DNA of 64,000 nucleotides from positions 1 to 64,000 of the IMG/VR virus record IMGVR_UViG_3300032233_002657. One strand, written 5' to 3'. The position numbers and the translations under genes are program-made. A model generated the notes under the pieces. The model did not search any database. It saw nothing but the letters and a program-made list of their open reading frames with translations, and was not told where the DNA came from. This stretch comes from a virus (Duplodnaviria; Caudoviricetes). Within the stretch, counting starts at the first letter, position 1. The number at the start of each line of letters is the position of its first letter. This document shows, one piece after another, positions 9,802 through 55,031 of the stretch.

Positions 9802-10992
9802 TTAGCTTTCAGAACTAATGTCTGGTAAAGCTATCTTGTTAAAAAATATACCCCAAGCTACACGCTCAAACCTGTCTGTTGTATTATAATACAACGTCCG
9901 CTGGCTGAGACTTTCTTGCATTATCGCATTCACTAAATCCATAGCAGACTTTTTAGGCCAAGTAGTAGACCTCTCAAGCATGGCAAAGTTATTGATCTTT
10001 GGTTCCTCACCAGTGAGGACCATAGCTAGACACCTTTTTGCCATAAAATAAGTGAGGCCCGCCCTCTCAGTTAAAAACTCTATGAATTCTTTAAACCTCT
10101 TCTCGTCTCCCTCGTTACCTGAAAACCCTAAGGATAGTCTAGAAGAGTTTTCTATTCTTTTAGCCAATCCAGAAGAAGATAAGGATTGATGAGAGATTTT
10201 GTCAACCGTGCTGGATATAAGCCTGGAAAGCTTATCCATCAGGTCTTTGCCCGAATGAGATACTCTGCTGAGTTTGCCATATGACGACATCATGGTGCTG
10301 CCGTTTTCACACATCACCACCACTGCTGCCTTTATAGCCGAGTCACCTATCTCGCTGTTCACTAGCCTTATACCAGGGCGTAAAGGAGAATCATCGTGCC
10401 CATCAGCTGAATACATTATTGATATTTTACGACCTGACACCGAAGCAGAATGAAAAGTAAGAGGGACCTCACAAGACTCTAGAGTGGTAGCCACAGCTGA
10501 TACGAAATCACCGTTAGGTAACCTTCTGTACCTATTGCCAACCACAGCTTCTATGACTTTGGTGTCCGAGTTTCGTATAGCTTGAAACCCGAACAGTCTA
10601 CCAAACCTTTTCTTCAACGCTAAATTGTATAAAGAAGCAGCTTCGCCTACTGAGAAATCCTCATCAGGGTCGGCTACAGATTTGTAAGACTTATCTAAGT
10701 CCTCTGGCTCTCGCTTCATGCCGAGCAGGTCTAATAAAGATAAAGACAGGCCTGAAGATAGCACCTTACAGACCTGTCTCATAGCCAGCCATGAAACTCT
10801 ATCGCCACCAACTGTAGTGCCCTTGCGCGATAGGGCCAACTGAGACTCGTCATCTATAAACCAGGACTCAGTTGTCCTTTCGCACTCAGCCAAAACATCA
10901 ACAAGTTTTGGGTAGTCACCCTTGTTAAACAACGAGCCCTGTAAGGAGACCGCAAGGTTGTTAGGCTCGTTGTTAGGTGGATTAGTGCGCAT
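9802..10992 (-). CDS. DUF932-like phage protein
   Basis: AVVGNRYRRLPN and GIRLVNSEIG motifs. Confidence 0.5.
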   Translation of the reverse strand: MRTNPPNNEPNNLAVSLQGSLFNKGDYPKLVDVLAECERTTESWFIDDESQLALSRKGTTVGGDRVSWLAMRQVCKVLSSGLSLSLLDLLGMKREPEDLDKSYKSVADPDEDFSVGEAASLYNLALKKRFGRLFGFQAIRNSDTKVIEAVVGNRYRRLPNGDFVSAVATTLESCEVPLTFHSASVSGRKISIMYSADGHDDSPLRPGIRLVNSEIGDSAIKAAVVVMCENGSTMMSSYGKLSRVSHSGKDLMDKLSRLISSTVDKISHQSLSSSGLAKRIENSSRLSLGFSGNEGDEKRFKEFIEFLTERAGLTYFMAKRCLAMVLTGEEPKINNFAMLERSTTWPKKSAMDLVNAIMQESLSQRTLYYNTTDRFERVAWGIFFNKIALPDISSES

Positions 10993-10998
10993 AGCTGG

Positions 10999-11352
10999 TT
11001 ACTTTCCATCAGACCAAGAAAAATAAACAGTCTTAGAACAGAATCCATGCTTATCTACGTCGTTACTAAGCCTTACCGTCATGTTAACCTCGGAAGGGTT
11101 AACTTGACTAATCATGGATTTAGCTGCAGCATTTACCGCTTCGGATAAGTTATCAATTGTAGGGTTAGAGTCTACGAGCATTTTAAACCAGTCCCTATCC
11201 TTACCCTCATCGGTGTTAGCCTTATCGCAACTTGGGAAATACTGCATAGTTACATCTAGGTACTTTGAAGAAGCACCTTCCTCTACGGCTGCACTGTCTA
11301 AAGCTACAGTCCTATGCATCTCTACGGCTAACTTACTTAACTTGCTAGACAT
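10999..11352 (-). CDS. hypothetical protein
   Basis: ORF track, RBS AAAGGA. Confidence 0.65.
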   Translation of the reverse strand: MSSKLSKLAVEMHRTVALDSAAVEEGASSKYLDVTMQYFPSCDKANTDEGKDRDWFKMLVDSNPTIDNLSEAVNAAAKSMISQVNPSEVNMTVRLSNDVDKHGFCSKTVYFSWSDGK

Positions 11353-11364
11353 GAAAAATCCTTT

Positions 11365-11928
11365 CTAATTAGTCCACGTGATCGAATCAAGAAGCTGCTC
11401 GAACGGTTCGATCACGAAGCTTTCTCCGTTCTTTAAAGACTTGTAAATCTTTAAGCAGTCATCATCTTTAGCGGCGGCAACGCTGTACCAAGAACCGCCA
11501 AATTTTTTAGAGTCTAGGTTGTGCATGCAGCACATCTTCCATTTGGGCCACTGGAATACAACTGCCATAGGCTTAGCCGCAGCATCCTTTGATCCCTTTA
11601 ACTGAAGTAAGTTTTCTTCTTCTACCCATCCTTGATACAACTCTGTCTTCTTAAAGCCTGTGTAAAGCCCAGCCCACATGTCGCGTATCCAAGGAATATT
11701 CTTGTATACCATGTGGATTGGGAAGCTAGGGTGCTCTTCAGAGAACCACTCTAAAGTTACCTTTACGCTTCCTGTCTGGGCCTTACACTTACGCTTCAAA
11801 TCAGGGAAAGTACCTGCTACAGGGAACTTATTAACCAGCTGCCTTAAAGCCGATTCTACAGAAGAGTGTTCGGTATCAATACCGGAAACCCTATCTTTAA
11901 AGAACTCTTCCCTGCTAGTCATACTCAC
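11365..11928 (-). CDS. hypothetical protein
   Basis: ORF track. Confidence 0.65.
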   Translation of the reverse strand: MSMTSREEFFKDRVSGIDTEHSSVESALRQLVNKFPVAGTFPDLKRKCKAQTGSVKVTLEWFSEEHPSFPIHMVYKNIPWIRDMWAGLYTGFKKTELYQGWVEEENLLQLKGSKDAAAKPMAVVFQWPKWKMCCMHNLDSKKFGGSWYSVAAAKDDDCLKIYKSLKNGESFVIEPFEQLLDSITWTN

Positions 11929-11931
11929 TCC

Positions 11932-13155
11932 TTACTTAATTTCATCTTCCAGTTCACCAGCTTCGCACGCTTCCTTCATTTGCACTGAGTAAGGAACGCC
12001 AGCCCTGAAAGGACGACGTTTTCTTATACCGTGAATGTTATCAAGCTCGGCTTTGATTACTTCGTTCTCTTCGATAGCTGCTCCTATCTCGGACCACGTA
12101 GCTTTAATCATGCCTAGCTCACCACAGTCAGCGGTGCGCTGCGCCTTGTTGATGTTACGAAGCCCAGTTACTTCTAAGACCCTGTTCTTACGGGTGCTGG
12201 TCATTTCGTTTATCAAGGCAATACTGGCTTCATGCCAATCCCACCAAGTGTGCTGCTCACCGGCCTCATTGAATATCCACTTCATAGGGACATCAATTGA
12301 CCTGCGCTCAGGTGCAGTGCCAAGACTATTCTTGTCCATAGTGAACTCGATAAGTCGGCCCGCTTCATCAAGGCGGTCAATGTCGTTACGTCGGTGCATA
12401 CGTAGTTTAAAGGTTGCATAGTAATCTAAAGCCTGACCTCCAGGTATTTTGCGCTCTATGAAGCCCTGAGGGTTTTTACTTATCTTCATATGATTGACTC
12501 CGATGAAGCTATAGGGCCATACCCTTAGTTCACTGAAGACAAACTTACAATAAGTGTTGATGATATTAGCAGCCTTGGCAAAGCCTATAGAAGCAAAACC
12601 CTTAGACCATATATCATCGATGTCCCCTCTAGTGGTTACGCCCGTTAAGGAGTCTACACCTATGGCAGCTGGAAAAGGGCAAGACCCGGACTCAGAGAAC
12701 ATGTCTCGGCTTTTCTTAAGCCACTCAGTTATGTTCTGCTGCCAGTCTTCTATACTGTTACATGTGACTGTAGGAAAAGTGGTATCAGACGCGTGGCCTA
12801 TTATGCTTGCCCGAAGATCGGGGCTGTCTCTAGGTTCAGCTAGATTAAGCACATAGCCACCACCTGCATCAACATGCCAACGAAACATTTCGTAAAGCAT
12901 AGCTGACTTACAGGATTCACTGACTCCATACAACTCAGTCATACGGCTTAAAGGAAAGCAATCGTTTTGAAATAAGTACCTAAGGCTAAATGCCTTCAAG
13001 GGTATACCTATAATCACACGTTGCGATTCTTTGCCTACGAAAGTATCGTTCCTGCCAAGTTCTGCTTGGGAAGAAGATAACTGAGATGAAAAAAAGTCAG
13101 ATGGAGATATCTTTAAGTCTGAGTCCCACTTTTTCTTAGCCATATTACAATGCAC
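11932..13155 (-). CDS. RecA/UvsX-like recombinase with atypical Walker A
   Basis: FPLSRMTELYGVSESCKS, IGVDSL, GVNH, PGGQALDYYA, DKN. Confidence 0.75.
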   Translation of the reverse strand: MHCNMAKKKWDSDLKISPSDFFSSQLSSSQAELGRNDTFVGKESQRVIIGIPLKAFSLRYLFQNDCFPLSRMTELYGVSESCKSAMLYEMFRWHVDAGGGYVLNLAEPRDSPDLRASIIGHASDTTFPTVTCNSIEDWQQNITEWLKKSRDMFSESGSCPFPAAIGVDSLTGVTTRGDIDDIWSKGFASIGFAKAANIINTYCKFVFSELRVWPYSFIGVNHMKISKNPQGFIERKIPGGQALDYYATFKLRMHRRNDIDRLDEAGRLIEFTMDKNSLGTAPERRSIDVPMKWIFNEAGEQHTWWDWHEASIALINEMTSTRKNRVLEVTGLRNINKAQRTADCGELGMIKATWSEIGAAIEENEVIKAELDNIHGIRKRRPFRAGVPYSVQMKEACEAGELEDEIK

Positions 13156-38943: not shown

Positions 38944-39002
38944 CTACCTTGCCCTGCCTCGCCTTACCATGGCTTGCCTCGGCGCGTGTAGCCCTATTGC
39001 CT
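38944..39002 (-). ncRNA. solo GGY-NN pentamer unit (putative guide RNA)
   Basis: minus: GGCTA CACGC GCCGA GGCAA GCCAT GGTAA GGCGA GGCAG GGCAA GGTAG in an AT-rich intergenic region. Confidence 0.55.
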
Positions 39003-42547: not shown

Positions 42548-42978
42548 TGCCCTAGCCCAACACAGCCTAGCCGTGCCTGCCATTCCGCGCCGATCCAGGC
42601 CCGACCATTCCATGCCTCCCCGCGCCCCGCCTGCCTCGCCACGCCTCGACTCGCCTCAACGGACCACGCCTCGCCTGCCGTGCGGGACCGGGCCCCGCCA
42701 AACCGCGCCTAGCCTGCCGTGCCGCGCCTCGACTAGCCTCGCCCGACCTAACCTCGTCACGCCAAGCCTTGCCCAGCCGAGCCTGCCAAGCCGATCGCAG
42801 CCGGACCGCGCCACGCCTCGCCTGCCATGCCTCGCCCCGCCCCGAGCTGCCTCGTCAGACCCCGCCGCGCCACGCCTCGCCTGCCACGCCTAGCCCTGCT
42901 CCGCGCTGCCCCGTCAGGACCCGCCACGCCTGCCTCGCCACGCCTCGACCGGCCTCGCCGGACCACGCCTTACCTGCC
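42548..42978 (-). ncRNA. pentamer array A: about 9 units of GGCA+(GGY-NN)n, putative guide-RNA array
   Basis: GGCAGGY separators at + coords 42575, 42629, 42673, 42712, 42781, 42820, 42879, 42928, 42972; intervals 54, 44, 39, 69, 39, 59, 49, 44 (all 5n+4). Repeat is certain; RNA function is inferred. Confidence 0.8.
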
Positions 42979-43098
42979 TTGTTGCTATCAATATAAATAA
43001 ACGGCTAAACCAACCCGCACAGTCGTAATGTTATGAACTATGGCAGCGCCTGCATAAATTACCCGTAGCCGAACAGCTGGTTTAGCCGAATGCTCATT

Positions 43099-43602
43099 TT
43101 ACAATATTGCTCTCATTTTATTAAGCATTTCAGATAGCTCTTCGTATTTAGAGTAAGTTGCTATAAGAGTTCTAATTCTGTCTAGCAACTGCTCTTTATG
43201 CTTGTTGTCAAGAGCGGGAGTCTTAGCGACTTCAATAGTAGGGTAGTAAGCCGACCCGTCTACTGAATTATGCACGTTTACAAAAGCTCTATATTTAACT
43301 TGAGTAGACACTTTAGAGTCAGGGTTATCTACCCTAGCAACTAAGCGCACTATGTTTAAAATCCTAGCAGCTTCTATTAAGTTTAACTTGTATTGCGCTA
43401 GATCTTTATCCCTAGTGAACAAACTATAGAATGTGTCGCTAGGTTCGCTGCTGTACTCTAATAGTGCCTCTGGAGTAAGCCTACCTCCGTTTTTATCTCT
43501 TATATCTATAACGGCTTCGTAAGCTTCTTTAGCCGTTACCCCAGGTATTTCTCTGCCTTTTCTGTACTCAAACCCTACGCTTTCCTTCTTCTTTTTTGCC
43601 AT
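43099..43602 (-). CDS. accessory protein between the RAMP-like gene and array A
   Basis: 167 aa, AGGAG RBS; GRLTPEALL...RAFVNV. Confidence 0.75.
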   Translation of the reverse strand: MAKKKKESVGFEYRKGREIPGVTAKEAYEAVIDIRDKNGGRLTPEALLEYSSEPSDTFYSLFTRDKDLAQYKLNLIEAARILNIVRLVARVDNPDSKVSTQVKYRAFVNVHNSVDGSAYYPTIEVAKTPALDNKHKEQLLDRIRTLIATYSKYEELSEMLNKMRAIL

Positions 43603-43634
43603 TTAGCTACTCCTGTGTAATTACCCTAGTAAAA

Positions 43635-44384
43635 TTACTCCCATGAGAACTCGTTTACTACTAAGTAGGTTCCATGGCTTCCACCTTTTTCAGGCCTCCA
43701 TTCACCGATACCAACGGTTTGCCCACTGTGGCTAATAAGTTGCGCCATCTGCTCAGCAGTGATATGGGCTGGGTTAAACCTTACAGAAAACTTAATGCCC
43801 CACTTCTTGAACTCAGGCCTGTGACGAAGATCAGGCTTGCCTAGCATGATTCTTACACGGTCCTGCCTCATAACCGGCCCAACTTTATTTGGGTGGTAAA
43901 CTGGTGTAAGTTCTCCGCCTTCTTCATCGTTTAGGATAAAGAACATCTGGCGAGCCACAGGGCGGCTTAGCTTAGGGTTGTTAGAGGTTAACGCTGAGAT
44001 AGCGGCAGCTTTTAGAGCAAGCAGAGGAAATCCAGGCCGACCGTCTTCGAGACGATAGAATGCGTTATTATATTCTTCTTCTGGATCTTTATCTTTTCTA
44101 GGGGCTGCACCCTTAGCTGCTTTTGTCTTTGATGGCTGCATTGATTCTAGCATCTGCTGCCTGCTCTTTTCTCCGAAGTTGTTTACAAGTAGAGGCGTTG
44201 TGCCTTCTACCGTGAACTCAAGCGTGTGCAGAGTTACTGGAGCGAACGTAAAGTTTACTGGTACAATTTTGCTAGCGCTATCTAACGTAGTAGCTGCAGC
44301 CTCTCCGCTCATATTAACTGCTTCTTTAATTTTACGAGCCTTCTTCATGAATTCTTTAGTAGTTTCGCGTTTGATAGTAGCCAT
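43635..44384 (-). CDS. stand-alone Cas7/RAMP-like RNA-binding protein
   Basis: N-terminal strand LEFTVEGTTPLLV, PGFPLLALKAA, RHRPEF..W, C-terminal Gly-rich loop VGIGEWRPEKGGSHGTY; start set at MATIK after GGAG. Confidence 0.75.
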   Translation of the reverse strand: MATIKRETTKEFMKKARKIKEAVNMSGEAAATTLDSASKIVPVNFTFAPVTLHTLEFTVEGTTPLLVNNFGEKSRQQMLESMQPSKTKAAKGAAPRKDKDPEEEYNNAFYRLEDGRPGFPLLALKAAAISALTSNNPKLSRPVARQMFFILNDEEGGELTPVYHPNKVGPVMRQDRVRIMLGKPDLRHRPEFKKWGIKFSVRFNPAHITAEQMAQLISHSGQTVGIGEWRPEKGGSHGTYLVVNEFSWE

Positions 44385-44441
44385 AGAATCATTCTCCGTG
44401 AATTGATAAATTAGATAAGCCAACGCTACATTGCGCTGACC

Positions 44442-44525
44442 TTAAGCCGCTTTTATTTTTTTTCTATTACCCGTCTTTATTTTGATACTCTTCTTTATTT
44501 TTTTCTTTACTTTAACCTTTGGCAT
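44442..44525 (-). CDS. 27-aa Lys-rich microprotein
   Basis: AGGAGGAG RBS; MPKVKVKKKIKKSIKIKTGNRKKIKAA. Confidence 0.5.
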   Translation of the reverse strand: MPKVKVKKKIKKSIKIKTGNRKKIKAA

Positions 44526-44557
44526 ATTCTCCTCCTTGAGTTTAGAGACGTCTCCAC

Positions 44558-44740
44558 TTACCACTTAGAAGAGCTCGTCATTCCTGACCTCCATTCCCAG
44601 CTGCAGCCGCCCCAAAATGGGTTGCTCCAGCAGTAAGATGGCGCGTAGTAATCCATCATGTCTGTAAACCAAAGCTCTGAGCTGCCCCTATCTTCCTGCC
44701 ATCCTTGTGATCTATCGCTATCACATACTTTTCTAATCAT
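44558..44740 (-). CDS. Trp/Ser-rich MIR-family microprotein
   Basis: MIRKVC...; ATGA coupling. Confidence 0.65.
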   Translation of the reverse strand: MIRKVCDSDRSQGWQEDRGSSELWFTDMMDYYAPSYCWSNPFWGGCSWEWRSGMTSSSKW

Positions 44741-44937
44741 CGTTGATTATCCTCCAAGCTCCAAGAATCCGAACAGACCACATCTATACTCCAGGAGTCG
44801 GACCAAAACCAGACACTGATCCAGAGGCTGGACCAAGGCAATTGCCTGGACCTAGACCAATGCCGGTTTAGAGGCCAAGACTGGGAGAGGGGTCTATCTC
44901 CGCGCTTGGTAGCAGGTAGACATTTCATTATCATCAT
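44737..44937 (-). CDS. Trp/Ser-rich microprotein (MMIMK variant)
   Basis: AGGAG RBS; SW repeats. Confidence 0.6.
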   Translation of the reverse strand: MMIMKCLPATKRGDRPLSQSWPLNRHWSRSRQLPWSSLWISVWFWSDSWSIDVVCSDSWSLEDNQR

Positions 44938-44946
44938 CGTATTCTC

Positions 44947-45150
44947 CTATTCATCGTTGACGCCCCTACTCCAACACTTAGACCAAGTTTTAGATATAGA
45001 CCAAACACCTGACTTATCTTGGTCTTGGCATCTACTGCTATACCAAGACCCAGAGTCGATCATATTCCAATGCCATAGCCAAGTATAAGGCCAAGGCTTG
45101 TTCCAGTTAGTGGACCAACATTTAGATGTGGGCCACGCTTTTCTTATCAT
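44947..45150 (-). CDS. Trp/Ser-rich MIR-family microprotein
   Basis: MIRKAWPTSK; ATGA coupling. Confidence 0.65.
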   Translation of the reverse strand: MIRKAWPTSKCWSTNWNKPWPYTWLWHWNMIDSGSWYSSRCQDQDKSGVWSISKTWSKCWSRGVNDE

Positions 45151-45332
45151 AGTCTGCTCCCCCAACACCTAGACCCAAGCTCATCTTCAGCCCAGTTAAC
45201 AGACCAAACTAAAGATTTAATTTGAGACCTACTTACAGTAGTGTTATTAGACCAGGACGAAGACTCGTCAAGCCAGGAACAGCGGCTAGAATCAGTCCAA
45301 GACCTAGAAGCAGGCCATGCTTTTCTTATCAT
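45147..45332 (-). CDS. Trp/Ser-rich MIR-family microprotein
   Basis: MIRKAWPASR; ATGA coupling. Confidence 0.65.
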   Translation of the reverse strand: MIRKAWPASRSWTDSSRCSWLDESSSWSNNTTVSRSQIKSLVWSVNWAEDELGSRCWGSRL

Positions 45333-45484
45333 TTATTACTCCAGTCTCGATTTGTAGCCCAACACATAGACCAGAGATCTTCTAGGCTCCAAGACAAGCC
45401 ATAGACATAAGACCTAAGATTGGAACTCCAACTTTCGCCTTTAGACCAAGAGCGACACTTAGGAAATATAAATCTTCTTATCAT
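45329..45484 (-). CDS. Trp/Ser-rich MIR-family microprotein (51 aa, not in ORF track)
   Basis: MIRRFIFPKCRSWSKGESWS...; ATGA overlap at both ends. Confidence 0.65.
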   Translation of the reverse strand: MIRRFIFPKCRSWSKGESWSSNLRSYVYGLSWSLEDLWSMCWATNRDWSNK

Positions 45485-45669
45485 ATATCTTCCCCCCATA
45501 ACTCCGAGTAGGTTCCATCAGTTTTCCAAAGCCCACTCCAGCACCAATCCAGTATCCAACACGCTGCATGGCGCGGCCAAGGCGTATATCTTCTTTCGCT
45601 CCAAGATACTTCTTGATCTCTAGCCCAACACAGGGAGCGCCCCTCTGTTGTCACCGGTCTTCTTATCAT
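45481..45669 (-). CDS. Trp/Ser-rich MIR-family microprotein
   Basis: MIRRPVTT; ATGA overlap at both ends. Confidence 0.65.
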   Translation of the reverse strand: MIRRPVTTEGRSLCWARDQEVSWSERRYTPWPRHAACWILDWCWSGLWKTDGTYSELWGEDI

Positions 45670-45866
45670 ATTTGATGCCTCCAAGACCTGGAGTCAAACC
45701 TTCCTCTAATCCAACTCAAAGACTTACGCCAAGAGTTAGTCCAAGACCTAGCCACACCATAGGGCAAACTCCAATCCTGGGAGCAAATTACAGAGGACAA
45801 CAACTCAGACTCAGACCAAGATTCAAGCCAAGAACCAGACCTACCGCATAATGTTCTTCTTATCAT
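45666..45866 (-). CDS. Trp/Ser-rich MIR-family microprotein
   Basis: MIRRTLCG; ATGA overlap at both ends. Confidence 0.65.
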   Translation of the reverse strand: MIRRTLCGRSGSWLESWSESELLSSVICSQDWSLPYGVARSWTNSWRKSLSWIRGRFDSRSWRHQI

Positions 45867-46021
45867 ATGTCTGTTCTCCAAGACCTAGACCAAGGCCAGA
45901 CCCATCCAAAGCGCCACGCGCTGTTCCAAGACCAAGATTTAAAATTACAGCCGTAGGTGAATCTGGCATATGTTTGAGCACTTACCCAAGACTTAGATCC
46001 TGGCATTTTGTTTCTTATCAT
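45863..46021 (-). CDS. Trp/Ser-rich MIR-family microprotein (52 aa, not in ORF track)
   Basis: MIRNKMPGSKSW...WPWSRSWRTDI. Confidence 0.65.
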   Translation of the reverse strand: MIRNKMPGSKSWVSAQTYARFTYGCNFKSWSWNSAWRFGWVWPWSRSWRTDI

Positions 46022-46245
46022 TCTCCGCTCCTCGTCTTTATAGATCCTCTAATCCCCTTTGACCAAGAATAGCTTGAGTTCCTACCCAGTTCTGATATGG
46101 ATAGATACTCAGCTCCTTTCCAGGCCCTATTAAATCTCATTCTTCCCGCCCATTCGCAGGACCTAAACCAACCACTCGAACACGAGAAAGTAGGGCCTAG
46201 AATTGGGTTGTTAAAAGGCTTTCCCGCCTTATTGTGCATTCTCAT
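46018..46245 (-). CDS. Trp/Ser-rich microprotein (MRMH variant)
   Basis: TAATG overlap with upstream gene, ATGA with downstream gene. Confidence 0.55.
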   Translation of the reverse strand: MRMHNKAGKPFNNPILGPTFSCSSGWFRSCEWAGRMRFNRAWKGAEYLSISELGRNSSYSWSKGIRGSIKTRSGE

Positions 46246-46562
46246 TACGCGTCTAATGGCGCAAAGCACCATCGTGGTTGGTAAATAATCTCTACCGCCC
46301 CGAGGGAGATAATCACAGAAGATCCAATCGGATCCTCGGTGTTAGGGGTCTCCTGGCTAGAGGCGCCAGAAGTCTCGACAGCGCGCGCCTGCGCAAGCAC
46401 TAAGCAATCTTCCCCCACGTGAGATAGAATCCCACGGTAGTTGTACCGCGCACATAACACCGCTACTGGCTGCCCAAGAAACTGCTGTGCCACTTGCGCC
46501 ATGCTAGCTGCAGCTGTGCCATCTATTTCAACTAAACTAACTTTGCTTTTAACCTTAGCCAT
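46245..46562 (-). CDS. small beta-barrel (Sm/LSm-like) protein
   Basis: FLGQPVAVLCARYNYRGILSHVGEDCLVL...ISLGAVE; AAGGAG RBS. Confidence 0.55.
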   Translation of the reverse strand: MAKVKSKVSLVEIDGTAAASMAQVAQQFLGQPVAVLCARYNYRGILSHVGEDCLVLAQARAVETSGASSQETPNTEDPIGSSVIISLGAVEIIYQPRWCFAPLDA

Positions 46563-46587
46563 AATTCCAACTCCTTGAATGTGATTC

Positions 46588-46623
46588 AAACAAAAAAGGG
46601 GCAGCAGAACATCTGCTACCCCC
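46588..46623 (-). terminator. intrinsic terminator
   Basis: GGGGTAGCAGA/TCTGCTGCCCC + TTTTTTGTTT. Confidence 0.75.
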
Positions 46624-46648
46624 GTAAGCTAAACTTGTCTATATAATT

Positions 46649-46906
46649 TTAATTACCTAGAGTCCACCCTCTTCTGCCGGCGTTTTCCCAATCCCAAGAC
46701 ATATGTATTCCATCTGAATCATTTGACCAATTCCATGACCAGATCTGTTCAGGCGAGGACCAGCTGTTGGAGAACATCCAACTGCAGTTAGGCCAAGAGA
46801 ATGAGGTATGTGATCCGTAGAATGTATCTCTAACTTGTGAAACGTTATAACTGGAGCTGGATAAGCTCCAGTTATACGAGTTTCCAAATAGCGAGCGCCT
46901 TATCAT
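46649..46906 (-). CDS. Trp/Ser-rich MIR-family microprotein
   Basis: MIRRSLFGNSYNWS. Confidence 0.65.
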   Translation of the reverse strand: MIRRSLFGNSYNWSLSSSSYNVSQVRDTFYGSHTSFSWPNCSWMFSNSWSSPEQIWSWNWSNDSDGIHMSWDWENAGRRGWTLGN

Positions 46907-46908
46907 TA

Positions 46909-47235
46909 CTAGTCCGCTACCTTTCGCTCTTTCTCAGCGGCTAGCGGATCATACTCCCGCTGACGTGTCACGCACACCCACGATCCCTTAGGGAGCGTAA
47001 TATTTGAGTGCTCGTCATGACCCACGACAGTCTCTTCGGCAGAGAAGAGATAGATATCACCCTTCTCATCTACAAAAGAAGCTACTTCATTTGCAGAAGT
47101 GATCTGATGTGAATGCCCGGTGACTTCACCGAACGCCAAGATTTTGCTGCCTAGCGGCTTTAGCTTATCTAAGCCCGCTGGCTTCTTAACAACCCTAAAG
47201 AAAATATCACCCTGACGCGCTTGAAACTTCTTCAT
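46909..47235 (-). CDS. conserved His-motif protein typically paired with DUF6745
   Basis: RQGD, LAFGEVTGHSH, HDEH, RQREYDP. Confidence 0.7.
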   Translation of the reverse strand: MKKFQARQGDIFFRVVKKPAGLDKLKPLGSKILAFGEVTGHSHQITSANEVASFVDEKGDIYLFSAEETVVGHDEHSNITLPKGSWVCVTRQREYDPLAAEKERKVAD

Positions 47236-47257
47236 AACTAATTCCTTTGATTAAAAC

Positions 47258-47854
47258 TTAAGATTCTTGTGAAGGAGCATACTTATCTGCCTTCATATAG
47301 TTTGTCCAGGCCACCGCCTCTACACATGTTTTCATGTTTGGAGGCACGCACAGAAAGTAATTTTTAAAACTACCATCTGGCTCCGCCGTAGAGTTAACCA
47401 CCTTAACATACAAGGTGGGTTCTTCAAAGATTTTTGGAATCTCGAAGAGGACTCTTTCCCTGCCGAACTGATCTACGTCTCTATGCACTATACGTGTTGT
47501 AGGCATAGTCATGATTTTGTCTAGCCCAACTATCTTCATCCCAACGTATTTTACTTCTGAGTTAGGATGTCTTAACACCTCCTCTACCGTTACATCTTCC
47601 GGCTTTGTGAAGAAGTGAGGAGGAATACGCACCCCCTCGTAATAGTACAGAATACTGCCGAACTTGTCGGCGTCCATTCCGTGCTGCTTGCCGTTTTTGT
47701 ACCACATGATACGCGTGGGGCTAACATACGCTGGACCCGTGTCACAGTGCAGTCGCCCGTCTTCGTTTAATATGCGCTTAACAGGCCCGAAGCTAAACTC
47801 TCCGTTAAAGAACTTGAGTCGCGCCACCCAAGCTTCATACCCTTTATTTTTCAT
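47258..47854 (-). CDS. DUF6745-like protein
   Basis: RLHCDTGPA, YYEGVRIP, VVNSTAEPDG, YFLCVPP, AVAWT. Confidence 0.65.
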   Translation of the reverse strand: MKNKGYEAWVARLKFFNGEFSFGPVKRILNEDGRLHCDTGPAYVSPTRIMWYKNGKQHGMDADKFGSILYYYEGVRIPPHFFTKPEDVTVEEVLRHPNSEVKYVGMKIVGLDKIMTMPTTRIVHRDVDQFGRERVLFEIPKIFEEPTLYVKVVNSTAEPDGSFKNYFLCVPPNMKTCVEAVAWTNYMKADKYAPSQES

Positions 47855-47855
47855 A

Positions 47856-48053
47856 CTACCTCCTTAATTTCCAATTACAACTAGCAGAACAATCATCTTC
47901 CCAGCCGCCAGACCTATACCAGCTTTGTGAATGGGAAGTTGACTGAGACCTTGGCGATGACGGCCTTCCCCATGTTGCTATATGGAGTACAGCCCAAGAT
48001 GCATTAGAAGCACCAAACCAACTAGCCGGCATTGTTGCTGTTCTTCTAATCAT
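47856..48053 (-). CDS. Trp/Ser-rich MIR-family microprotein
   Basis: MIRRTATM. Confidence 0.65.
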   Translation of the reverse strand: MIRRTATMPASWFGASNASWAVLHIATWGRPSSPRSQSTSHSQSWYRSGGWEDDCSASCNWKLRR

Positions 48054-48214
48054 TCAAGCTCCATAAAATTTTCTGAAAACGCCCAGTTATTTACCCAGCT
48101 CCAAGAGAAGCATCCAGCAAAAATATTGGATACTCCCCAAAAATCTGATGCTGCTCTTGATGCGCTTCGCCCACAAGACCAGGATTGAGACATATGCATA
48201 CGGGATCTAAGCAC
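48050..48214 (-). CDS. Trp/Ser-rich microprotein (MLRSR variant, 54 aa, not in ORF track)
   Basis: GGAGG RBS + GTG; SQSWSC...FSWSWVNNW; ATGA coupling. Confidence 0.55.
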   Translation of the reverse strand: MLRSRMHMSQSWSCGRSASRAASDFWGVSNIFAGCFSWSWVNNWAFSENFMELE

Positions 48215-48449
48215 TATCCACCTCCGATAGTTTAATAACTTTAATTCCGATCTTAGGCCCTATCACTTGGCTTCTCTCAAAGATGCGACTTGTGTCAGGA
48301 ACATCTTCGTTCATAAGAACGAAAAGGTTTCCTCTTTTCTCAAACATCTGCCCTGTTATAGGAGCTATCCATGACCCACCTTCCTTTAGGTAAGTGAATA
48401 CTTTCTTTAACCATTGTATGTCTGTTACGCTAGGTTTCCATTCAACCAC
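48207..48449 (-). CDS. hypothetical protein
   Basis: AGGAGG RBS + GTG. Confidence 0.65.
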   Translation of the reverse strand: MVEWKPSVTDIQWLKKVFTYLKEGGSWIAPITGQMFEKRGNLFVLMNEDVPDTSRIFERSQVIGPKIGIKVIKLSEVDSA

Positions 48450-48491
48450 GAGGTCCTCCTTTAGACTGCCTATAGTAGGCTCGTAACGAGT

Positions 48492-48623
48492 TTAAAAAAA
48501 CCAACCATTTGCCCAGCCTCTACTCCATCTCCAGTCATCAGCCCAAGACACAGAGTAAGAATAAGGCTCAGACCAAGCTTTGGAGACGTCTCTAATTAAG
48601 TATGCTTTGCGTCTTCTTATCAT
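48492..48623 (-). CDS. Trp/Ser-rich MIR-family microprotein (43 aa, ends in a T7 run)
   Basis: MIRRRKAYL...GWANGWFF; TAATG overlap. Confidence 0.55.
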   Translation of the reverse strand: MIRRRKAYLIRDVSKAWSEPYSYSVSWADDWRWSRGWANGWFF

Positions 48624-48802
48624 TAAGCACCTCTCAAAATCCTATTTAAAAACCAACCTAGTGACCAATTTCTACTCCATTGAATCCAATTTGTTAAAGA
48701 CACAGAGTAAGAACAACCATGAGACCAGGACAAAGAGTAAACCCAAGGATCAGACCATGATTTAGATGAATCAAGTGGGTGTATTTTTCTTCTTATCATC
48801 AT
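48623..48802 (-). CDS. Trp/Ser-rich MIR-family microprotein
   Basis: MMIRRKIHP. Confidence 0.65.
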   Translation of the reverse strand: MMIRRKIHPLDSSKSWSDPWVYSLSWSHGCSYSVSLTNWIQWSRNWSLGWFLNRILRGA

Positions 48803-48996
48803 GGACCAACTCTCCGAGGTTTTAATATAGACCAAGGCAAGCGATTGAAGTGAGCCCAAGCACACGCAATACCCTTATACTTGTGTCCAGATATGGTCGT
48901 GTTTTCTGACCAGAGCCTATTTATCTTTTTGTCCTTAGTCCAACAAACAGACATTTTACTTTGATGCAATGGATACAAAAGTTTTCTTATCATCAT
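48799..48996 (-). CDS. MIR-family microprotein
   Basis: MMIRKLLYP; paralogue of next ORF. Confidence 0.65.
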   Translation of the reverse strand: MMIRKLLYPLHQSKMSVCWTKDKKINRLWSENTTISGHKYKGIACAWAHFNRLPWSILKPRRVGP

Positions 48997-49181
48997 GAAC
49001 TGACCCTCCAAGACTTGAACTTAGACCAAGGAAAGAACAGGAAATTGGAACAGGTCCCCCTAAGGATATGCCCGGAAAAGATCTTATTTTTGTCCCAAAG
49101 GCTATTTATCCTGATTTTTTCGGACCAGCACTTGGACATTTTTCTATCGCTATGTATAGCGTATACAAGTTTTCTTATCAT
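48993..49181 (-). CDS. MIR-family microprotein
   Basis: MIRKLVYA; AGGAG RBS. Confidence 0.65.
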   Translation of the reverse strand: MIRKLVYAIHSDRKMSKCWSEKIRINSLWDKNKIFSGHILRGTCSNFLFFPWSKFKSWRVSS

Positions 49182-49182
49182 G

Positions 49183-49386
49183 TTAACTCCTTACGGACCC
49201 TGAAAATCTATTGCACCATGCAGAAGAAGATATGGTTAAACCAGACCATAATGCTCCTCTAGAGCCGCGCCACAGTTTTGTAGTAGAGCGTACTTTAAGC
49301 TCTGTAAACGAATTACTACTCGTTCCTTCTTCGTTCCATGCACGACTATACCCGTGGGCCATAGTGTTTCCTGTTCTTGGGATCAT
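49183..49386 (-). CDS. Trp/Ser-rich microprotein (MIPR variant)
   Basis: AGGAG RBS. Confidence 0.6.
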   Translation of the reverse strand: MIPRTGNTMAHGYSRAWNEEGTSSNSFTELKVRSTTKLWRGSRGALWSGLTISSSAWCNRFSGSVRS

Positions 49387-49403
49387 TGGTTCTCCTAGTT
49401 AGG

Positions 49404-49601
49404 TTATCTGTGTATAGACCACGATAGAGACCTGAAAGCAGTAAAGAAATGACTATCCTGCCCTCCAATCCTGGATCTAGAGTATTTAGCCATGATGGAC
49501 GCTACCCCACCCGTTGTGTACACGAAAGCTCTATACTTAGAGCTGTAAGTTCTGGCTATTCCCCAAGAGTATGATCCAGGTGTGTTTATTTTTCTGATCA
49601 T
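49404..49601 (-). CDS. MIR-family microprotein
   Basis: MIRKINTPG. Confidence 0.62.
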   Translation of the reverse strand: MIRKINTPGSYSWGIARTYSSKYRAFVYTTGGVASIMAKYSRSRIGGQDSHFFTAFRSLSWSIHR

Positions 49602-49605
49602 TTGT

Positions 49606-49773
49606 TTACAGCCCCCAACTATTAGGCGCCCAACTGTTAGTCCGTGTGTGCCGCCACTCAGAGGATAGAGCCCAACACCTGGACCAAGAAAACGATTTAG
49701 CCGAAGACCTGGTCCAGTGCCCAGAGCCAGGCCAATCCCAAACAGGATAGTTATTGTTAGTTTTTCTTATCAT
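49606..49773 (-). CDS. Trp/Ser-rich MIR-family microprotein
   Basis: MIRKTNNN; TGATG overlap. Confidence 0.65.
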   Translation of the reverse strand: MIRKTNNNYPVWDWPGSGHWTRSSAKSFSWSRCWALSSEWRHTRTNSWAPNSWGL

Positions 49774-49976
49774 CAAATGTTTCTCCAATAATTTAAACTC
49801 CACCCTCCTGAGCTAAAACTATTGCACCAGCTGCCTATACCTAACCAAGGAGATGACATACAATGCTGCCACCCCCAGTTCCATGAACGATTTACAAAGT
49901 AGTAGTTCGCTGAGAATGATGTAGGTCTTATATTATTCCAGCACTTTGATTCATGGGTTCTTATTTTTCTTATCAT
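49773..49976 (-). CDS. Trp/Ser-rich MIR-family microprotein
   Basis: MIRKIRTHESKCW; ATGA coupling. Confidence 0.65.
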   Translation of the reverse strand: MIRKIRTHESKCWNNIRPTSFSANYYFVNRSWNWGWQHCMSSPWLGIGSWCNSFSSGGWSLNYWRNI

Positions 49977-50236
49977 AGTTTTTCCCTTACTCTTAGCATG
50001 TCTTCTTCAGTAGCCATGATGCTGTACACCATAGGCTCATCTTTAAAAGACCACCACCCTCTATCTTCATCTAGCTCGTTGCCCACTCTAAATACGAACT
50101 CATAGTGGCATCCGTTAACTACGATGGATGACGGCCATATGTCTTTGTCGCCTATTCTTATTAGGCGGTTTGTTAAGAAGATAGTAAGCATTTGTTCTAG
50201 GGATTTGCCTACTACCCACTGGTTAAAATCATCCAT
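49973..50236 (-). CDS. hypothetical protein
   Basis: ORF track, start adjusted to MDDFNQW. Confidence 0.6.
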   Translation of the reverse strand: MDDFNQWVVGKSLEQMLTIFLTNRLIRIGDKDIWPSSIVVNGCHYEFVFRVGNELDEDRGWWSFKDEPMVYSIMATEEDMLRVREKL

Positions 50237-50405
50237 GCTTGTGCGCAATGCTGTTAGGCTCGCAGTATGTACAACATCGGGGAGGCGTACCGTCTACGCG
50301 CAGAGGCGTAGTTCCTTCTATTTTAAATACCATTGTAAAAAGTTTTTGTTTTTTATCCTTTTTAATCTTAGCCCTTACTTTAGAGTCGGTTAGTGTATTT
50401 TTCAT
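50229..50405 (-). CDS. 58-aa ORF carrying a copy of the RAMP N-terminal motif (FKIEGTTPLRV)
   Basis: AAGGAG RBS; manual translation. Confidence 0.55.
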   Translation of the reverse strand: MKNTLTDSKVRAKIKKDKKQKLFTMVFKIEGTTPLRVDGTPPRCCTYCEPNSIAHKHG

Positions 50406-51554: not shown

Positions 51555-51584
51555 AACCAAGACCTCCTGTTTAAAGATTACTAA

Positions 51585-51840
51585 CCGTGCCTGCCTCGCC
51601 ACGCCTCGACTCGCCTCAACGGACCACGCCTGCCGAGCCGTTTCGTGCCGTTTCGCGTCAAACCCCGCCCCGCCTTGCCTGCCTTGCCTATCCGTGCCTC
51701 GCCGGGCCTGGCCATGCCTGCCAAGTCCGTGCCTTGCGCCACCGCGACCCGCCGGGCCTGCCGCGCCTCGCCTTGCCCGCCCTCACCCCGCCTCGCCTGC
51801 CGCGCTTTTCCCAGCCGCACCATAACGAGCCGCGCCTTAC
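51585..51840 (-). ncRNA. pentamer array B1 (about 6 units), downstream of tRNA
   Basis: separators at 51589, 51628, 51677, 51716, 51756, 51795; intervals 39, 49, 39, 40, 39. Confidence 0.8.
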
Positions 51841-51854
51841 TTTTGAAACTATAT

Positions 51855-51926
51855 TGGGCCACCTCGGATTCGAACCAAGAACCAAGGAATTATGAGTTCC
51901 CTGCTCTGCCTTTGAGCTAGTGGCCC
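51855..51926 (-). tRNA. tRNA with CAU anticodon, probably tRNA-Ile2 (lysidine type); no encoded CCA
   Basis: GGGCCAC/GTGGCCC acceptor stem, CTCATAA loop, TTCGAATC T-loop; C4/C5 as in TilS substrates. Confidence 0.88.
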
Positions 51927-51934
51927 TATGAGTT

Positions 51935-52537
51935 GCCTGCCTCGCCAGCCCTCGCCCCGCCTGGCCACACCGCGCCTGCCAAGCCACGCCATGACTCGCC
52001 GCGACGTGTCTAACCTAGCCTGCCTCGCCAGCCCTCGCCCGCCCTTGCCATACCGAGCCTGCCGTGCCACGTCTCACCTATTCTTGCCCCGACATGCCTG
52101 CCGCGCCTCTCCCGAACAGGCCGCGCCTCACCTAGCCTGCCGCTCCTCGCCGCGCCTCACCTCACCTAGCCGTGCCTGCCATGTCCCGCCTGGTCAGGCC
52201 TCGCCCCGCCTAGCCTGCCTTGCCTAGACCTGCCCCTCCATGCTGTGCCCCGCCTAGCCTGCCTCGCGTTACCATGCCGCTCCATTACAAACCCGGCCGT
52301 GCCTGCCATACCTCGCCGAGACAGACCTTGCCGAGCCGCACCGCGCCTGCCATGTCCCGCCATGTCGTGCCTAGCCTGCCGCGCCGAACCTCGGCTGACC
52401 TCGACTTACCGTGCCTGCCTCGCCTCGCCAGGCCCAGCCTTGCCTGACCGTGCCTGCCGCTCCTCACCACGCCTCGCCGAACCTCGCCCAGCCTAGCCTG
52501 CCTTGCCACGCTCTGCCTAGCCGGGCCGTACCTTGCC
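51935..52537 (-). ncRNA. pentamer array B2 (about 15 units), upstream of tRNA
   Basis: separators 51935...52496; 14 intervals: eight of 39, five of 44, one of 29 (all 5n+4). Confidence 0.82.
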
Positions 52538-52560
52538 TCAATTTAGCAAGTTACCTTGCC

Positions 52561-53222: not shown

Positions 53223-55031
53223 ATGATAAATACCCCTAATCAAACGTCCAGCGCTTCTTCTAATCAAAAGGCCTTAAACGAAGTTATAACACGTATAAAG
53301 AAAGGCTCGTTTCCAAACCTCTCTTCGCTTCTACCGGCAATGCTAAACCTCGATGGAAAGCCCTATAGCCTTGAGAAACACTTTCAGTTTGAGCCTCTTT
53401 TCAATATTTATATGCCTAGACGAACCATATTGAAAACTGGTCGTCAGGTGGGTAAGAGCACGGTTATCTCTGCGCATGGAGTTATAACCTGCGCTACCGT
53501 TCCATACTTTCGAAACCTTTATATTACTCCTTTGTTTGAGCAGGTGCGCCGCCTGTCTAGTAATTACGTAAGACCCTTCATAGAGCAATCTCCGGTCAAA
53601 TCTATTTTAATTGGCCCTGAGACTGAGAACAGCGTGCTGCAAAGAAGCTTTCGCAACAACAGCATGATGCAGTTCTCATTTGCTCTACTCGACGCCGATA
53701 GAATTCGTGGTATACGAGCCGATCAGGTTATCATCGATGAAGTTCAGGATATGGATGGAGATCACATACCTGTTATTCGAGAAACCATGTCGGCCAGTGA
53801 ATGGGGTAACATGAAAATCGCAGGTACCCCTAAGACCTTAGATAACACCATAGAGCGAGAATGGTTGTCGTCATCTCAAGCTGAATGGTGTATAGTATGC
53901 AGAGCTTGCAAGTACACAAACGTCTCATCGGTTAATCATGACCTTATTCGCATGATTGGCCCTGTAAGGGCGGATATCTCAGAGCATAGCCCTGGAACCG
54001 TTTGTGCAAAATGTAGCAAGACTATTTACCCTAAAGATGGAAGATGGATTCATAAACATCCGGAGAGAAGACTCAATTACGCCGGATACCATATTCCTCA
54101 ACCAATAATGCATATTCATTACTCCAGACCAGATAAATGGGCGGAGCTGAATGCAAAGAGAGAAGGGATGGGAAACTATACACACGAAAGGTTCTTAAAC
54201 GAAGTCTTAGGAGAAAGCTCCGGAGCAGGCCTACAGCTCGTATCACTTCTTGAGCTGCAAGCTGCTTCTAATCCTGATCTTAAGAACAATCCGAGAGACC
54301 CATCTTCAAGCTGTAAGGATGAAATTCTTAAAAAGTACGCTCACCGAATACTTGCCGTTGACTGGGGTGGCGGTGGTGAGAAGGGCGTAAGCCTTACTGT
54401 ACTTGCTGTCATGGGCATTACCTCTACTGGTGTCATAGAGGTCCTGTGGTCTAAGCGCCTTCTCACCCCCCATGACCACATGGCTGAAGCTGCAGAGTGC
54501 CTTAAGATTCATCGCATGTTTAAATGCGAGTTTATAACTCATGACTTCTCTGGAGCGGGCGTAGTCCGAGAAACTGTTTTAGTTCAGTCGGGAATATCGC
54601 CTACTCAGCTGCTGCCTGTACAGTACGTAAGAGCAGCCAGCAAAGGTATGTTTACTTACATACCGTCAGCGCCAGCTCACCCCAGGGCTCATTACAGAGC
54701 TGATAAGACACGAAGCTTACTGACTACATGCTCAGCCATACGCACTAAGAAGCTTAGATTCTTTGCCTATGACTACGTTAGCTCAGAAGACCCAGGCCTT
54801 ATTCAAGACTTCCTAGCCTTGATTGAAAGCAAAGCCACTACAGCGGCTGGGTCTGACATATACACTATTCAGAGAAACCCAGCCTTATCCGACGACTTTG
54901 CTCAGTCGGTTAACATAGGCTGCTTGTGCCTGTGGCATATGACTGGAAGATGGCCTGACTTTAAAACAGATAGATACTCTGTAACTAGAGAGCAAGCTAT
55001 GGAAACCGGAATGGGCGGATGGAACACCTAG
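53223..55031 (+). CDS. terminase large subunit (gpA-like)
   Basis: KTGRQVGKS, IRGIRADQVIIDEVQD, AGTP, CxxC pairs, NEVLG, AVDWGGG nuclease motif. Confidence 0.85.
   Translation: MINTPNQTSSASSNQKALNEVITRIKKGSFPNLSSLLPAMLNLDGKPYSLEKHFQFEPLFNIYMPRRTILKTGRQVGKSTVISAHGVITCATVPYFRNLYITPLFEQVRRLSSNYVRPFIEQSPVKSILIGPETENSVLQRSFRNNSMMQFSFALLDADRIRGIRADQVIIDEVQDMDGDHIPVIRETMSASEWGNMKIAGTPKTLDNTIEREWLSSSQAEWCIVCRACKYTNVSSVNHDLIRMIGPVRADISEHSPGTVCAKCSKTIYPKDGRWIHKHPERRLNYAGYHIPQPIMHIHYSRPDKWAELNAKREGMGNYTHERFLNEVLGESSGAGLQLVSLLELQAASNPDLKNNPRDPSSSCKDEILKKYAHRILAVDWGGGGEKGVSLTVLAVMGITSTGVIEVLWSKRLLTPHDHMAEAAECLKIHRMFKCEFITHDFSGAGVVRETVLVQSGISPTQLLPVQYVRAASKGMFTYIPSAPAHPRAHYRADKTRSLLTTCSAIRTKKLRFFAYDYVSSEDPGLIQDFLALIESKATTAAGSDIYTIQRNPALSDDFAQSVNIGCLCLWHMTGRWPDFKTDRYSVTREQAMETGMGGWNT

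Follow-up and report, generated by a model that had tools for sequence, protein, structure and literature searches.

The virus record IMGVR_UViG_3300032233_002657 (181,489 bp, 44% G+C, estimated to be 88% complete) stems from an uncultured large freshwater (lake) phage, and its first 64 kb, here called the window, contain an array of 20 small open reading frames (ORFs) of 43-85 codons for Trp- and Ser-rich microproteins, all of them situated on the minus strand between positions 44558 and 49976 (Table 1). Sixteen of the 20 start with MIR[K/R/N] and the others with MIMK, MIPR, MLRSR and MRMH, the MLRSR ORF opening with GTG. A preliminary description of this DNA had listed about 20 small ORFs with these starts and with stop-start chaining, and all were found in place, on the minus strand. 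They are arranged in two polycistronic chains, block A running from 49976 to 46649 and block B from 46562 to 44558, in which nine junctions are ATGA overlaps of 4 nucleotides (nt), five are TAATG or TGATG overlaps of a single nt and the remaining gaps measure 1-17 nt. The sequence ATGATAAGAA is present in 14 copies in the 181,489-bp genome, exclusively on the minus strand, and 12 of these reside inside the array. ORFs of 35-130 amino acids (aa) with at least 8% Trp are similarly concentrated: 15 of the 16 found genome-wide belong to the array and none is encoded on the plus strand.

Block A is headed by a gene for a 91-aa protein (49973-50248) that is ATGA-coupled to the first MIRK gene and has no match in Pfam, NCBIfam or PADLOC, and it is closed by a terminator-like hairpin (46597-46623, minus strand) with 12 pairs and a T run. 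Block B starts with a gene for a 105-aa Sm-like protein (46245-46562). Its stop codon forms a TAATG overlap with the start codon of the next gene, which encodes the 75-aa MRMH microprotein and opens the ATGA-linked chain extending to 44558. The array belongs to a series of small genes lying upstream of genes of the replication type, and lysis genes are not adjacent to it; a terminase gene is found at 53223-55031 of the window. In a blastn comparison with 50,697 phage records the array region found no match, nor did the microproteins match any entry in Pfam, PHROGs, NCBIfam or PADLOC. The ESM Atlas yielded no usable entry for the one member and the 91-aa head protein that were looked up.

Start module, repeat bodies and coding status

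Start sites were counted over 107 distinct members from eight loci. GGAG is present at positions -13 to -10 before the ATG in 67-79 of the 107, and codon choice within the MIR[K/R] start is strongly skewed, with ATA in 99 of 107 members, AGA for 90 of 95 Arg codons and AAA for 65 of 67 Lys codons against genome backgrounds of 0.58, 0.43 and 0.49, respectively. In the start ATGATAAGAARA, the string ATGATAA provides the ATGA overlap together with a back-up in-frame TAA stop upstream and an A-rich initiation region; the upstream gene thereby receives a TGA-TAA double stop, and each gene of the array has a GGAG ribosome site, which is embedded in the end of the preceding gene. As the synonymous sites are fixed while the bodies have diverged past recognition, the start is constrained as nucleic acid, and it is at least in part a nucleotide-level module for stop-start coupling. 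A protein-level role may be left to the basic fourth residue (Lys or Arg). The invariant protein part comprises only the four residues MIR[KR], followed by a loose leader with the alignment consensus MIR[KR]-x(5-8)-S-[KR]-[SC]-W. The constant N-terminal handle of the preliminary description is thus constant indeed but not simply a handle on the protein, given that synonymous sites are fixed too.

Compared with the long ORFs of the same genome, the microproteins are enriched in Trp (10.8% vs 1.1%), Ser (18.0% vs 8.4%) and Arg (9.1% vs 4.4%), and 15 of 19 members have a positive net charge, with values of +2 to +11 in most. The distance between successive Trp residues (gaps of up to 12 residues) is even in 81 of 92 cases, where 2000 shuffles gave 47 +/- 5% and never more than 66%. 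Ser occupies offsets -3, -1, +1 and +3 from Trp at frequencies of 52%, 35%, 34% and 24% and even offsets at 7-12%, the even offsets holding Trp and Arg/Lys. From the parity of the Trp gaps and the placement of Ser at odd offsets it follows that the bodies are degenerate, imperfect (X-Ser)n repeats, the X position being held mainly by Trp, followed by Arg/Lys, Gly or Cys. Earlier, the bodies had been described as hypervariable and rich in SW, WS and CW, a view that captured the enrichment of Trp and Ser and overlooked the alternating periodicity. More distant relatives are visibly repetitive, loci L017/L018 having (GSWS)n bodies and L046 having runs of (SW)n or (SM)n, and some relatives exhibit WPW/WSW runs.

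Local duplication, proposed before on the basis of similar neighbors, is borne out by the mean local alignment score, which is higher for adjacent than for non-adjacent genes (49.9 vs 41.6, permutation p = 0.006), and by two clear recent duplicate pairs that are reciprocal best partners (the genes starting at 49181/48993 and at 48799/48623). Growth of the array by tandem duplication at the conserved junctions, combined with slippage of 6- or 12-nt repeat units, accords with these observations. Sequence comparison thus upholds the earlier picture of a diversified, paralogous and translationally coupled family.

A profile search revealed near-identical proteins in lake metagenomes, encoded on contigs that are syntenic with the window. 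The family recurs in these syntenic relatives in an unchanged frame; the orthologues have kept their length, and individual members were gained or lost. Three related phage contigs, each offering 1.4-2.6 kb of aligned orthologues, were compared, and ratios of nonsynonymous to synonymous substitution (dN/dS, Nei-Gojobori) were pooled. The preliminary description had considered the case that frames are not preserved in related genomes; in these relatives the MIRK frame contains not a single stop across orthologues, and the other five frames contain 35-160. Pooled dN/dS of the MIRK frame is 0.59, 0.53 and 0.41 in the three comparisons, the lowest of all six frames with the exception of the antisense -1 frame (0.47, 0.46, 0.38), which is stop-laden and has its third positions in common with the MIRK frame. 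Trp is kept at 51/53, 60/64 and 94/96 aligned sites (205/213 taken together), compared with about 65-90% for most other residues, and even members with a dN/dS near or above 1, such as that at 45329-45484 (0.92-1.68), retain all or nearly all of their Trp residues. Selection on Trp, which had been suspected from its rarity and cost, is thereby corroborated.

Ser residues beside Trp are drawn from both codon families (59 TCN and 25 AGY codons), and TGG occurs 126 times in frame vs 8 and 24 times in the other two frames. In conjunction with the spacing of the GGAG sites, this argues for selection at the level of the protein rather than of a DNA hexamer. In four freshwater metatranscriptomes, short contigs were found that map to portions of the region, 46.0-47.3 kb and 48808-48986 in particular. 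At the level of sequence, the 20 small ORFs are confirmed as protein-coding genes, the translation of which is predicted. On the plus strand, ORFs of 60-73 codons with repeats of the Pro-Arg/Gly-Leu type are found between 44900 and 46100 and mirror the hexamer periodicity of the minus strand; as candidate genes they were rejected because stops accumulate in relatives.

AlphaFold2 predicted almost no secondary structure for a 51-aa member on the basis of a 51-row alignment (mean predicted local distance difference test, pLDDT, 56; predicted template modeling score, pTM, 0.15), a model that is consistent with disorder or with folding on binding. Inspection by eye, for which no predictor was run, revealed no signal peptide or transmembrane stretch in any member.

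The predicted Sm-fold protein, its genomic company and distribution

The 105-aa protein encoded at the head of block B, a gene present once in the genome, coupled to the chain and overlooked in the preliminary description, has more than 160 metagenomic homologues of 58-98% identity, and none of the homologues listed carries an Sm/LSm Pfam family. Its AlphaFold2 model (pLDDT 82.3, pTM 0.69) consists of an N-terminal helix followed by strands. In a Foldseek search against the PDB, the top matches were all Sm/LSm chains, both archaeal SmAP and eukaryotic Sm/LSm proteins, at a probability of 1.00 and with template modeling scores of up to 0.84 (target-normalised), whereas a sequence-based comparison of the family profile with the PDB gave no match. 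According to the model, the 105-aa protein thus has an Sm fold. Wherever the Sm-like protein is at least 71% identical to that of the window, its gene is followed by a microprotein chain.

Together with the genes for a DUF6745 protein and for a 108-aa protein of the RQGD...GHSH type (phrog_27831), the Sm-fold gene makes up a three-gene core that is found in about 40 loci, on contigs of large freshwater phages of up to 305 kb, in varying gene order and with or without microprotein arrays. Two contigs contain the Sm-like gene twice, about 30-36 kb apart, one of 271 kb (L049/L050) and one of 54 kb (L051/L052); they have been binned into metagenome-assembled genomes (MAGs) of Acidimicrobiaceae and Phycisphaerales and are probably phage DNA. 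MAG bins of contigs with an Sm-like gene (Gemmataceae, Phycisphaerales and Acidimicrobiaceae) were considered as an indication of the host and left unused as too weak.

All ten viral-contig loci with a DUF6745 protein at least 80% identical to that of the window contain 8-27 microprotein genes, with none on the other strand. A version with MILK, MIFK or MIIR starts occurs in phages whose neighboring genes are 51-63% identical (L020, L021, L036, L044 and L046, one of these contigs being 305 kb in length), and about half of the loci at this level of neighbor identity have no microprotein genes. When a 51-member profile was run against 1.84 billion representative proteins, it returned five true matches, all from this clade, and a spurious one to a tandem-repeat protein; such a search is limited by the short and biased sequences, and the MILK-type relatives were reached via synteny alone. 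The closest cultured phages are Salmonella phage Arash and Vibrio phage D69, with a terminase of about 30% identity, and the 40 kb of phage Arash that were examined hold no such array. A literature search for Trp-rich phage microproteins, for DUF6745 and for Sm-like proteins in combination with repeat microproteins yielded nothing relevant.

Possible functions of the microproteins

We consider it the best overall explanation, and one with about an even chance of being right, that the locus is a coupled array of X-Ser genes, linked to an Sm-fold gene, for disordered peptides that bind in a multivalent manner. To judge from the junctions, translation probably proceeds from gene to gene by coupled re-initiation on a small number of transcripts. 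The products would be intrinsically disordered cationic peptides, in which evenly spaced Trp and Arg residues serve as multivalent contacts either with RNA or with pockets on a host or rival protein. Their action would take place at an early stage of infection, in concert with the Sm-like ring or next to it, and an arms race or a multitude of targets would account for their diversity. The functional part of this explanation, i.e. disordered, cationic and multivalent RNA- or protein-binding peptides acting with or beside the Sm-like ring, is put forward as a tentative possibility. A more specific version appears rather unlikely. Here, the array would be a library of disordered, multivalent Trp/Arg "sticker" peptides that capture or condense RNA with the Sm-like ring or, like the viral GW mimics of Argonaute partners, block pockets for Trp on defence proteins of the host or of rivals, each copy being tuned to another target. 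If this were true, the array would represent a new class of viral effectors built from coding microsatellites.

Several observations weigh against the proposed disordered, Sm-linked peptides. The head gene of block A is unrelated to the Sm-like profile, such that the 12 genes of this block have no Sm-like head, and about half of the more distant core-bearing phages have no X-Ser genes within 10 kb, from which it follows that the Sm-like protein does not need X-Ser genes. The dN/dS values fall short of 1 by a moderate margin only, and third codon positions show just a slight surplus of differences (79/79/120 for the three positions in the best comparison). The metatranscriptome contigs are short and of low depth, may contain DNA, and give neither strand nor level. 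RNA binding is deduced from composition and gene linkage only, low AlphaFold2 confidence on a shallow alignment of paralogues is no proof of disorder, and the even spacing of Trp may be a legacy of repeat slippage and not a functional need.

Known systems offer partial parallels to the array. The eukaryotic Sm/LSm proteins SmD1, SmD3, SmB and LSm4 have tails of Arg-Gly dipeptide repeats. They resemble the array in that an Sm fold goes together with dipeptide repeats of a basic, low-complexity type, which in the eukaryotic case make contact with RNA or partners; in the array, the repeat resides on separate polypeptides, has Ser and not Gly at alternating positions, shows a high Trp content and comes in many diversified versions, and no homology is apparent beyond the fold. 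In the GW/WG "Ago-hook" repeats of GW182/TNRC6 and of viral GW mimics, Trp is flanked by Gly or Ser in disordered, multivalent segments. Disordered Trp arrays are a trait that the microproteins would have in common with these hooks, just as they share a short, cationic and Trp-rich nature with Trp/Arg-rich antimicrobial peptides, but strict even spacing of Trp and alternation with Ser set the array apart from both. The early T4 proteins GoF, MotB.1 and Frd.2 have an LSm-like fold and a proposed role in RNA stability (PMC12152347). Like the Sm gene of the array, they are small phage Sm/LSm folds in early regions; a repeat-microprotein partner has not been described for them (PMC12152347), and we found no sequence relation. 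These and the further analogies treated below are all partial and, judged by sequence, the array could be assigned to none of these systems; what would be undescribed is the gene class, which is not to say that a new mechanism has been shown. If the peptides are made, 3-5 kb of the genome are devoted, throughout a clade of large freshwater phages, to proteins in which Trp is about ten times as frequent as usual. No published family or system covers the microproteins or the partner gene with the predicted Sm fold, and the locus presents a tractable case of gene birth from coding microsatellites, of extreme translational coupling and possibly of a new viral control of RNA or host.

Among the alternatives, an action on membranes is unlikely but still ranks first. 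Indolicidin, tritrpticin and synthetic (RW)n are cationic, Trp-rich, membrane-active peptides, and the products of the array, with their Trp and Arg contents and net positive charges, might likewise insert at the membrane interface and bring about superinfection exclusion, envelope remodeling or lysis. The alternation of Trp with polar residues is typical of amphipathic strands, and the WPW/WSW runs of some relatives are indolicidin-like. On the other hand, the microproteins are very rich in Ser and weakly hydrophobic, with no signal or membrane segment seen by eye, their genes are linked translationally to an Sm-fold gene, lie ahead of genes of the replication type and are not adjacent to lysis genes, and 20 diversified copies are hard to square with a non-specific effect.

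We regard it as quite unlikely that the microproteins are packaged and injected internal proteins, with the constant N-terminus acting as a signal for capsid targeting or processing and the variable bodies as anti-defence cargo. The internal-protein locus of phage T4 provides the precedent: its products carry a capsid-targeting signal of 10-19 residues that is cleaved by the prohead protease. Both loci combine a constant N-terminus with unrelated, fast-evolving bodies and high turnover, which in the array is apparent from rapid gain and loss among relatives and from members with a dN/dS above 1, and the array is located near the terminase gene. Yet its invariant part is limited to four residues that are fixed at synonymous sites as well, pointing at a nucleotide-level role, no conserved protease site or cleavage motif was seen after the start, and the genes are transcribed away from the terminase gene.

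The array is situated between two arrays of periodic repeats and directly upstream of a gene that the preliminary description had taken for a RAMP gene accompanied by guide arrays and possibly co-transcribed with the microproteins. VIPR systems consist of the RAMP homologue vipr, the accessory gene vap and vrRNAs with alternating GGY/NN, and silence rival elements (bioRxiv 10.64898/2026.04.26.720920; 10.64898/2026.10.15.759431); the layout of vipr+vap loci has been described (bioRxiv 10.64898/2026.04.26.720920). On sequence evidence, the flanking arrays and the "RAMP" gene of the window are such a VIPR system, which corrects the local map in that the pentamer arrays and the "RAMP" gene are assigned to VIPR and the microprotein array stands apart. 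The units follow the pattern (GGYNN)5-13, closed by GGCA, and lack the long conserved tail of the SUSP1 type.

That the microproteins are VIPR accessory or counter-VIPR proteins, helping or inhibiting the Vipr-vrRNA filaments of the own phage or of rivals, is improbable and largely refuted by distribution. Besides its position, metatranscriptome contigs that bridge the last microprotein gene and the 5' end of vipr (44338-44577) would speak for this possibility, as would the inter-phage conflict, including anti-VIPR strategies, that is dealt with in the VIPR preprints (bioRxiv 10.64898/2026.04.26.720920; 10.64898/2026.10.15.759431). In the same two preprints (10.64898/2026.04.26.720920 and 10.64898/2026.10.15.759431), which present minimal vipr+vap loci, Trp-rich small genes are not mentioned. 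The vipr/vap pair and GGYNN runs are confined to the closest relatives. Relatives with an 80-85% identical DUF6745 protein contain 8-16 microprotein genes without a vipr match or a GGYNN run within 10 kb. Arrays lacking both within this distance are found in loci L024-L032 and in the MILK-type loci L020, L021, L036, L044 and L046. In L001/L002, the same microprotein array and core genes about 99% identical to those of the window (Sm-like, RQGD) are accompanied by vipr and vap proteins of merely 49% and 27% identity (10851-12130 vs 43099-44384 of the window); it seems that the VIPR module was exchanged here as a cassette. Guides decoded from the window by the published 1-nt-skip rule (25 in number) matched nothing in the array, the genome or eight related loci above shuffled-guide nulls, and the idea that the microprotein genes are targets or decoys of VIPR was rejected on these grounds. 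Both systems are neighbors in an accessory region of the conflict type, VIPR being an RNA-guided DNA-silencing system. Since relatives keep the microprotein array without vipr, the array is by this comparison functionally independent of VIPR and the adjacency incidental, and the previously proposed link to guide arrays and RAMP gene was abandoned.

Modified-peptide precursors had also been suggested. A layout resembling leader and core, many diversified copies and W-x-W motifs would suit precursors of ribosomally synthesized and post-translationally modified peptides (RiPPs), consisting of a constant leader and a variable Trp-rich core; modified peptides of the darobactin type carry Trp cross-links. 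We deem this origin very improbable, as searches with working controls detected neither a radical-SAM (PF04055) nor a YcaO (PF02624) gene in the 181-kb genome, which is however 88% complete, and a host enzyme might step in. There is no enzyme-like gene in the array either, the inserted genes encoding the DUF6745, 108-aa, Sm-fold and 80-aa proteins. A non-coding DNA or RNA repeat element, composed of the ATGATAAGAA junction and the hexamer periodicity and with an incidentally open frame, would account for the conservation of the junction at the nucleotide level, for the 60-73-codon antisense frames and for the proximity of non-coding periodic arrays, but is rejected by the frame statistics and retains next to no probability, given that only one of six frames is stop-free across orthologues, ribosome sites are correctly spaced, Ser stems from both codon families, Trp is kept while neighboring residues change and no Rfam match was found.

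Feature map and observations at the vrRNA arrays

The features of the region are compiled in Table 1.

Table 1. Features in and around the microprotein array, positions referring to the window.
Position	Strand	Feature	Basis or remark
49973-50248	-	Head gene of block A, 91 aa, unknown family	ATGA-coupled to first MIRK gene
49773-49976	-	Microprotein, 67 aa, MIRK, 8 Trp	Orthologues 82-90% identical, dN/dS 0.23-0.45, Trp 8/8 kept
49606-49773	-	Microprotein, 55 aa, MIRK, 8 Trp	ORF and orthologue comparison
49404-49601	-	Microprotein, 65 aa, MIRK, atypical with 2 Trp only	ORF, composition
49183-49386	-	Microprotein, 67 aa, MIPR	ORF and orthologue comparison
48993-49181	-	Microprotein, 62 aa, MIRK, recent duplicate of gene 48799-48993	Paralogue similarity
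48799-48993	-	Microprotein, 64 aa, MIRK	Orthologues; metatranscriptome contig over 48808-48986
48623-48799	-	Microprotein, 58 aa, MIRR	Orthologue and paralogue comparison
48492-48623	-	Microprotein, 43 aa, MIRR	ORF and orthologue comparison
48207-48449	-	80-aa non-family gene inserted in the chain	ORF, family scans
48050-48214	-	Microprotein, 54 aa from GTG (MLRSR); may start at an inner Met (47-aa version)	ORF
47856-48053	-	Microprotein, 65 aa, MIRR	dN/dS 0.12-0.31
47258-47854	-	DUF6745 protein, 198 aa, three-gene core	Pfam PF20530, E 1e-23; core kept in about 40 loci
46909-47235	-	108-aa RQGD...GHSH protein (phrog_27831), three-gene core	PHROGs, synteny
46649-46906	-	Microprotein, 85 aa, MIRR, 10 Trp, then strong terminator	Orthologues; metatranscriptome contigs, 0 differences at 46646-46927
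46597-46623	-	Terminator-like hairpin ending block A	12 pairs and T run
46245-46562	-	Predicted Sm-fold protein, 105 aa from ATG	AlphaFold2, Foldseek; TAATG stop-start overlap with 46018-46245; single genome copy
46018-46245	-	Microprotein, 75 aa, MRMH, first after Sm-like gene	Conserved in relatives
45863-46021	-	Microprotein, 52 aa, MIRN, 8 Trp	ORF and orthologue comparison
45666-45866	-	Microprotein, 66 aa, MIRR	dN/dS 0.86-1.56
45481-45669	-	Microprotein, 62 aa, MIRR	dN/dS 0.06-0.50, Trp 8/8
45329-45484	-	Microprotein, 51 aa, MIRR, fastest-evolving member	dN/dS 0.92-1.68; Trp kept 6/6, 6/6, 6/7
45147-45332	-	Microprotein, 61 aa, MIRK	Orthologue and paralogue comparison
44947-45150	-	Microprotein, 67 aa, MIRK, 11 Trp	ORF, composition
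44737-44934	-	Microprotein, 65 aa, MIMK	ORF and orthologue comparison
44558-44740	-	Microprotein, 60 aa, MIRK, last in chain	ORF and orthologue comparison
43635-44384	-	vipr gene (RAMP homologue), 249 aa, not of the family	phmmer to PDB 36pp_D "SUSP1 Vipr protein", E 5.4e-7
43099-43602	-	Probable vap (vipr-accessory) gene	Position after vipr; travels with vipr in relatives
42560-42980	-	vrRNA array A, 8 units (GGYNN)n + GGCA	Unit pattern
51580-52540	-	vrRNA array B, about 20 units, with tRNA(CAU) at 51855-51926	Unit pattern

One guide unit is present in both vrRNA arrays (42632-42675 and 51592-51630), the two copies differing solely by a pentamer that array A has in addition. Outside the arrays, an isolated run of five in-phase GGYNN pentamers is found at 38944-38968 on the minus strand and possibly represents a solo vrRNA or a chance occurrence. 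Array B encloses the only tRNA gene of the genome (51855-51926, minus strand), the anticodon of which is CAU. Since Ile in long ORFs is most often encoded by ATA (58%), this tRNA may be a lysidine-type tRNA-Ile2 and not a tRNA-Met.

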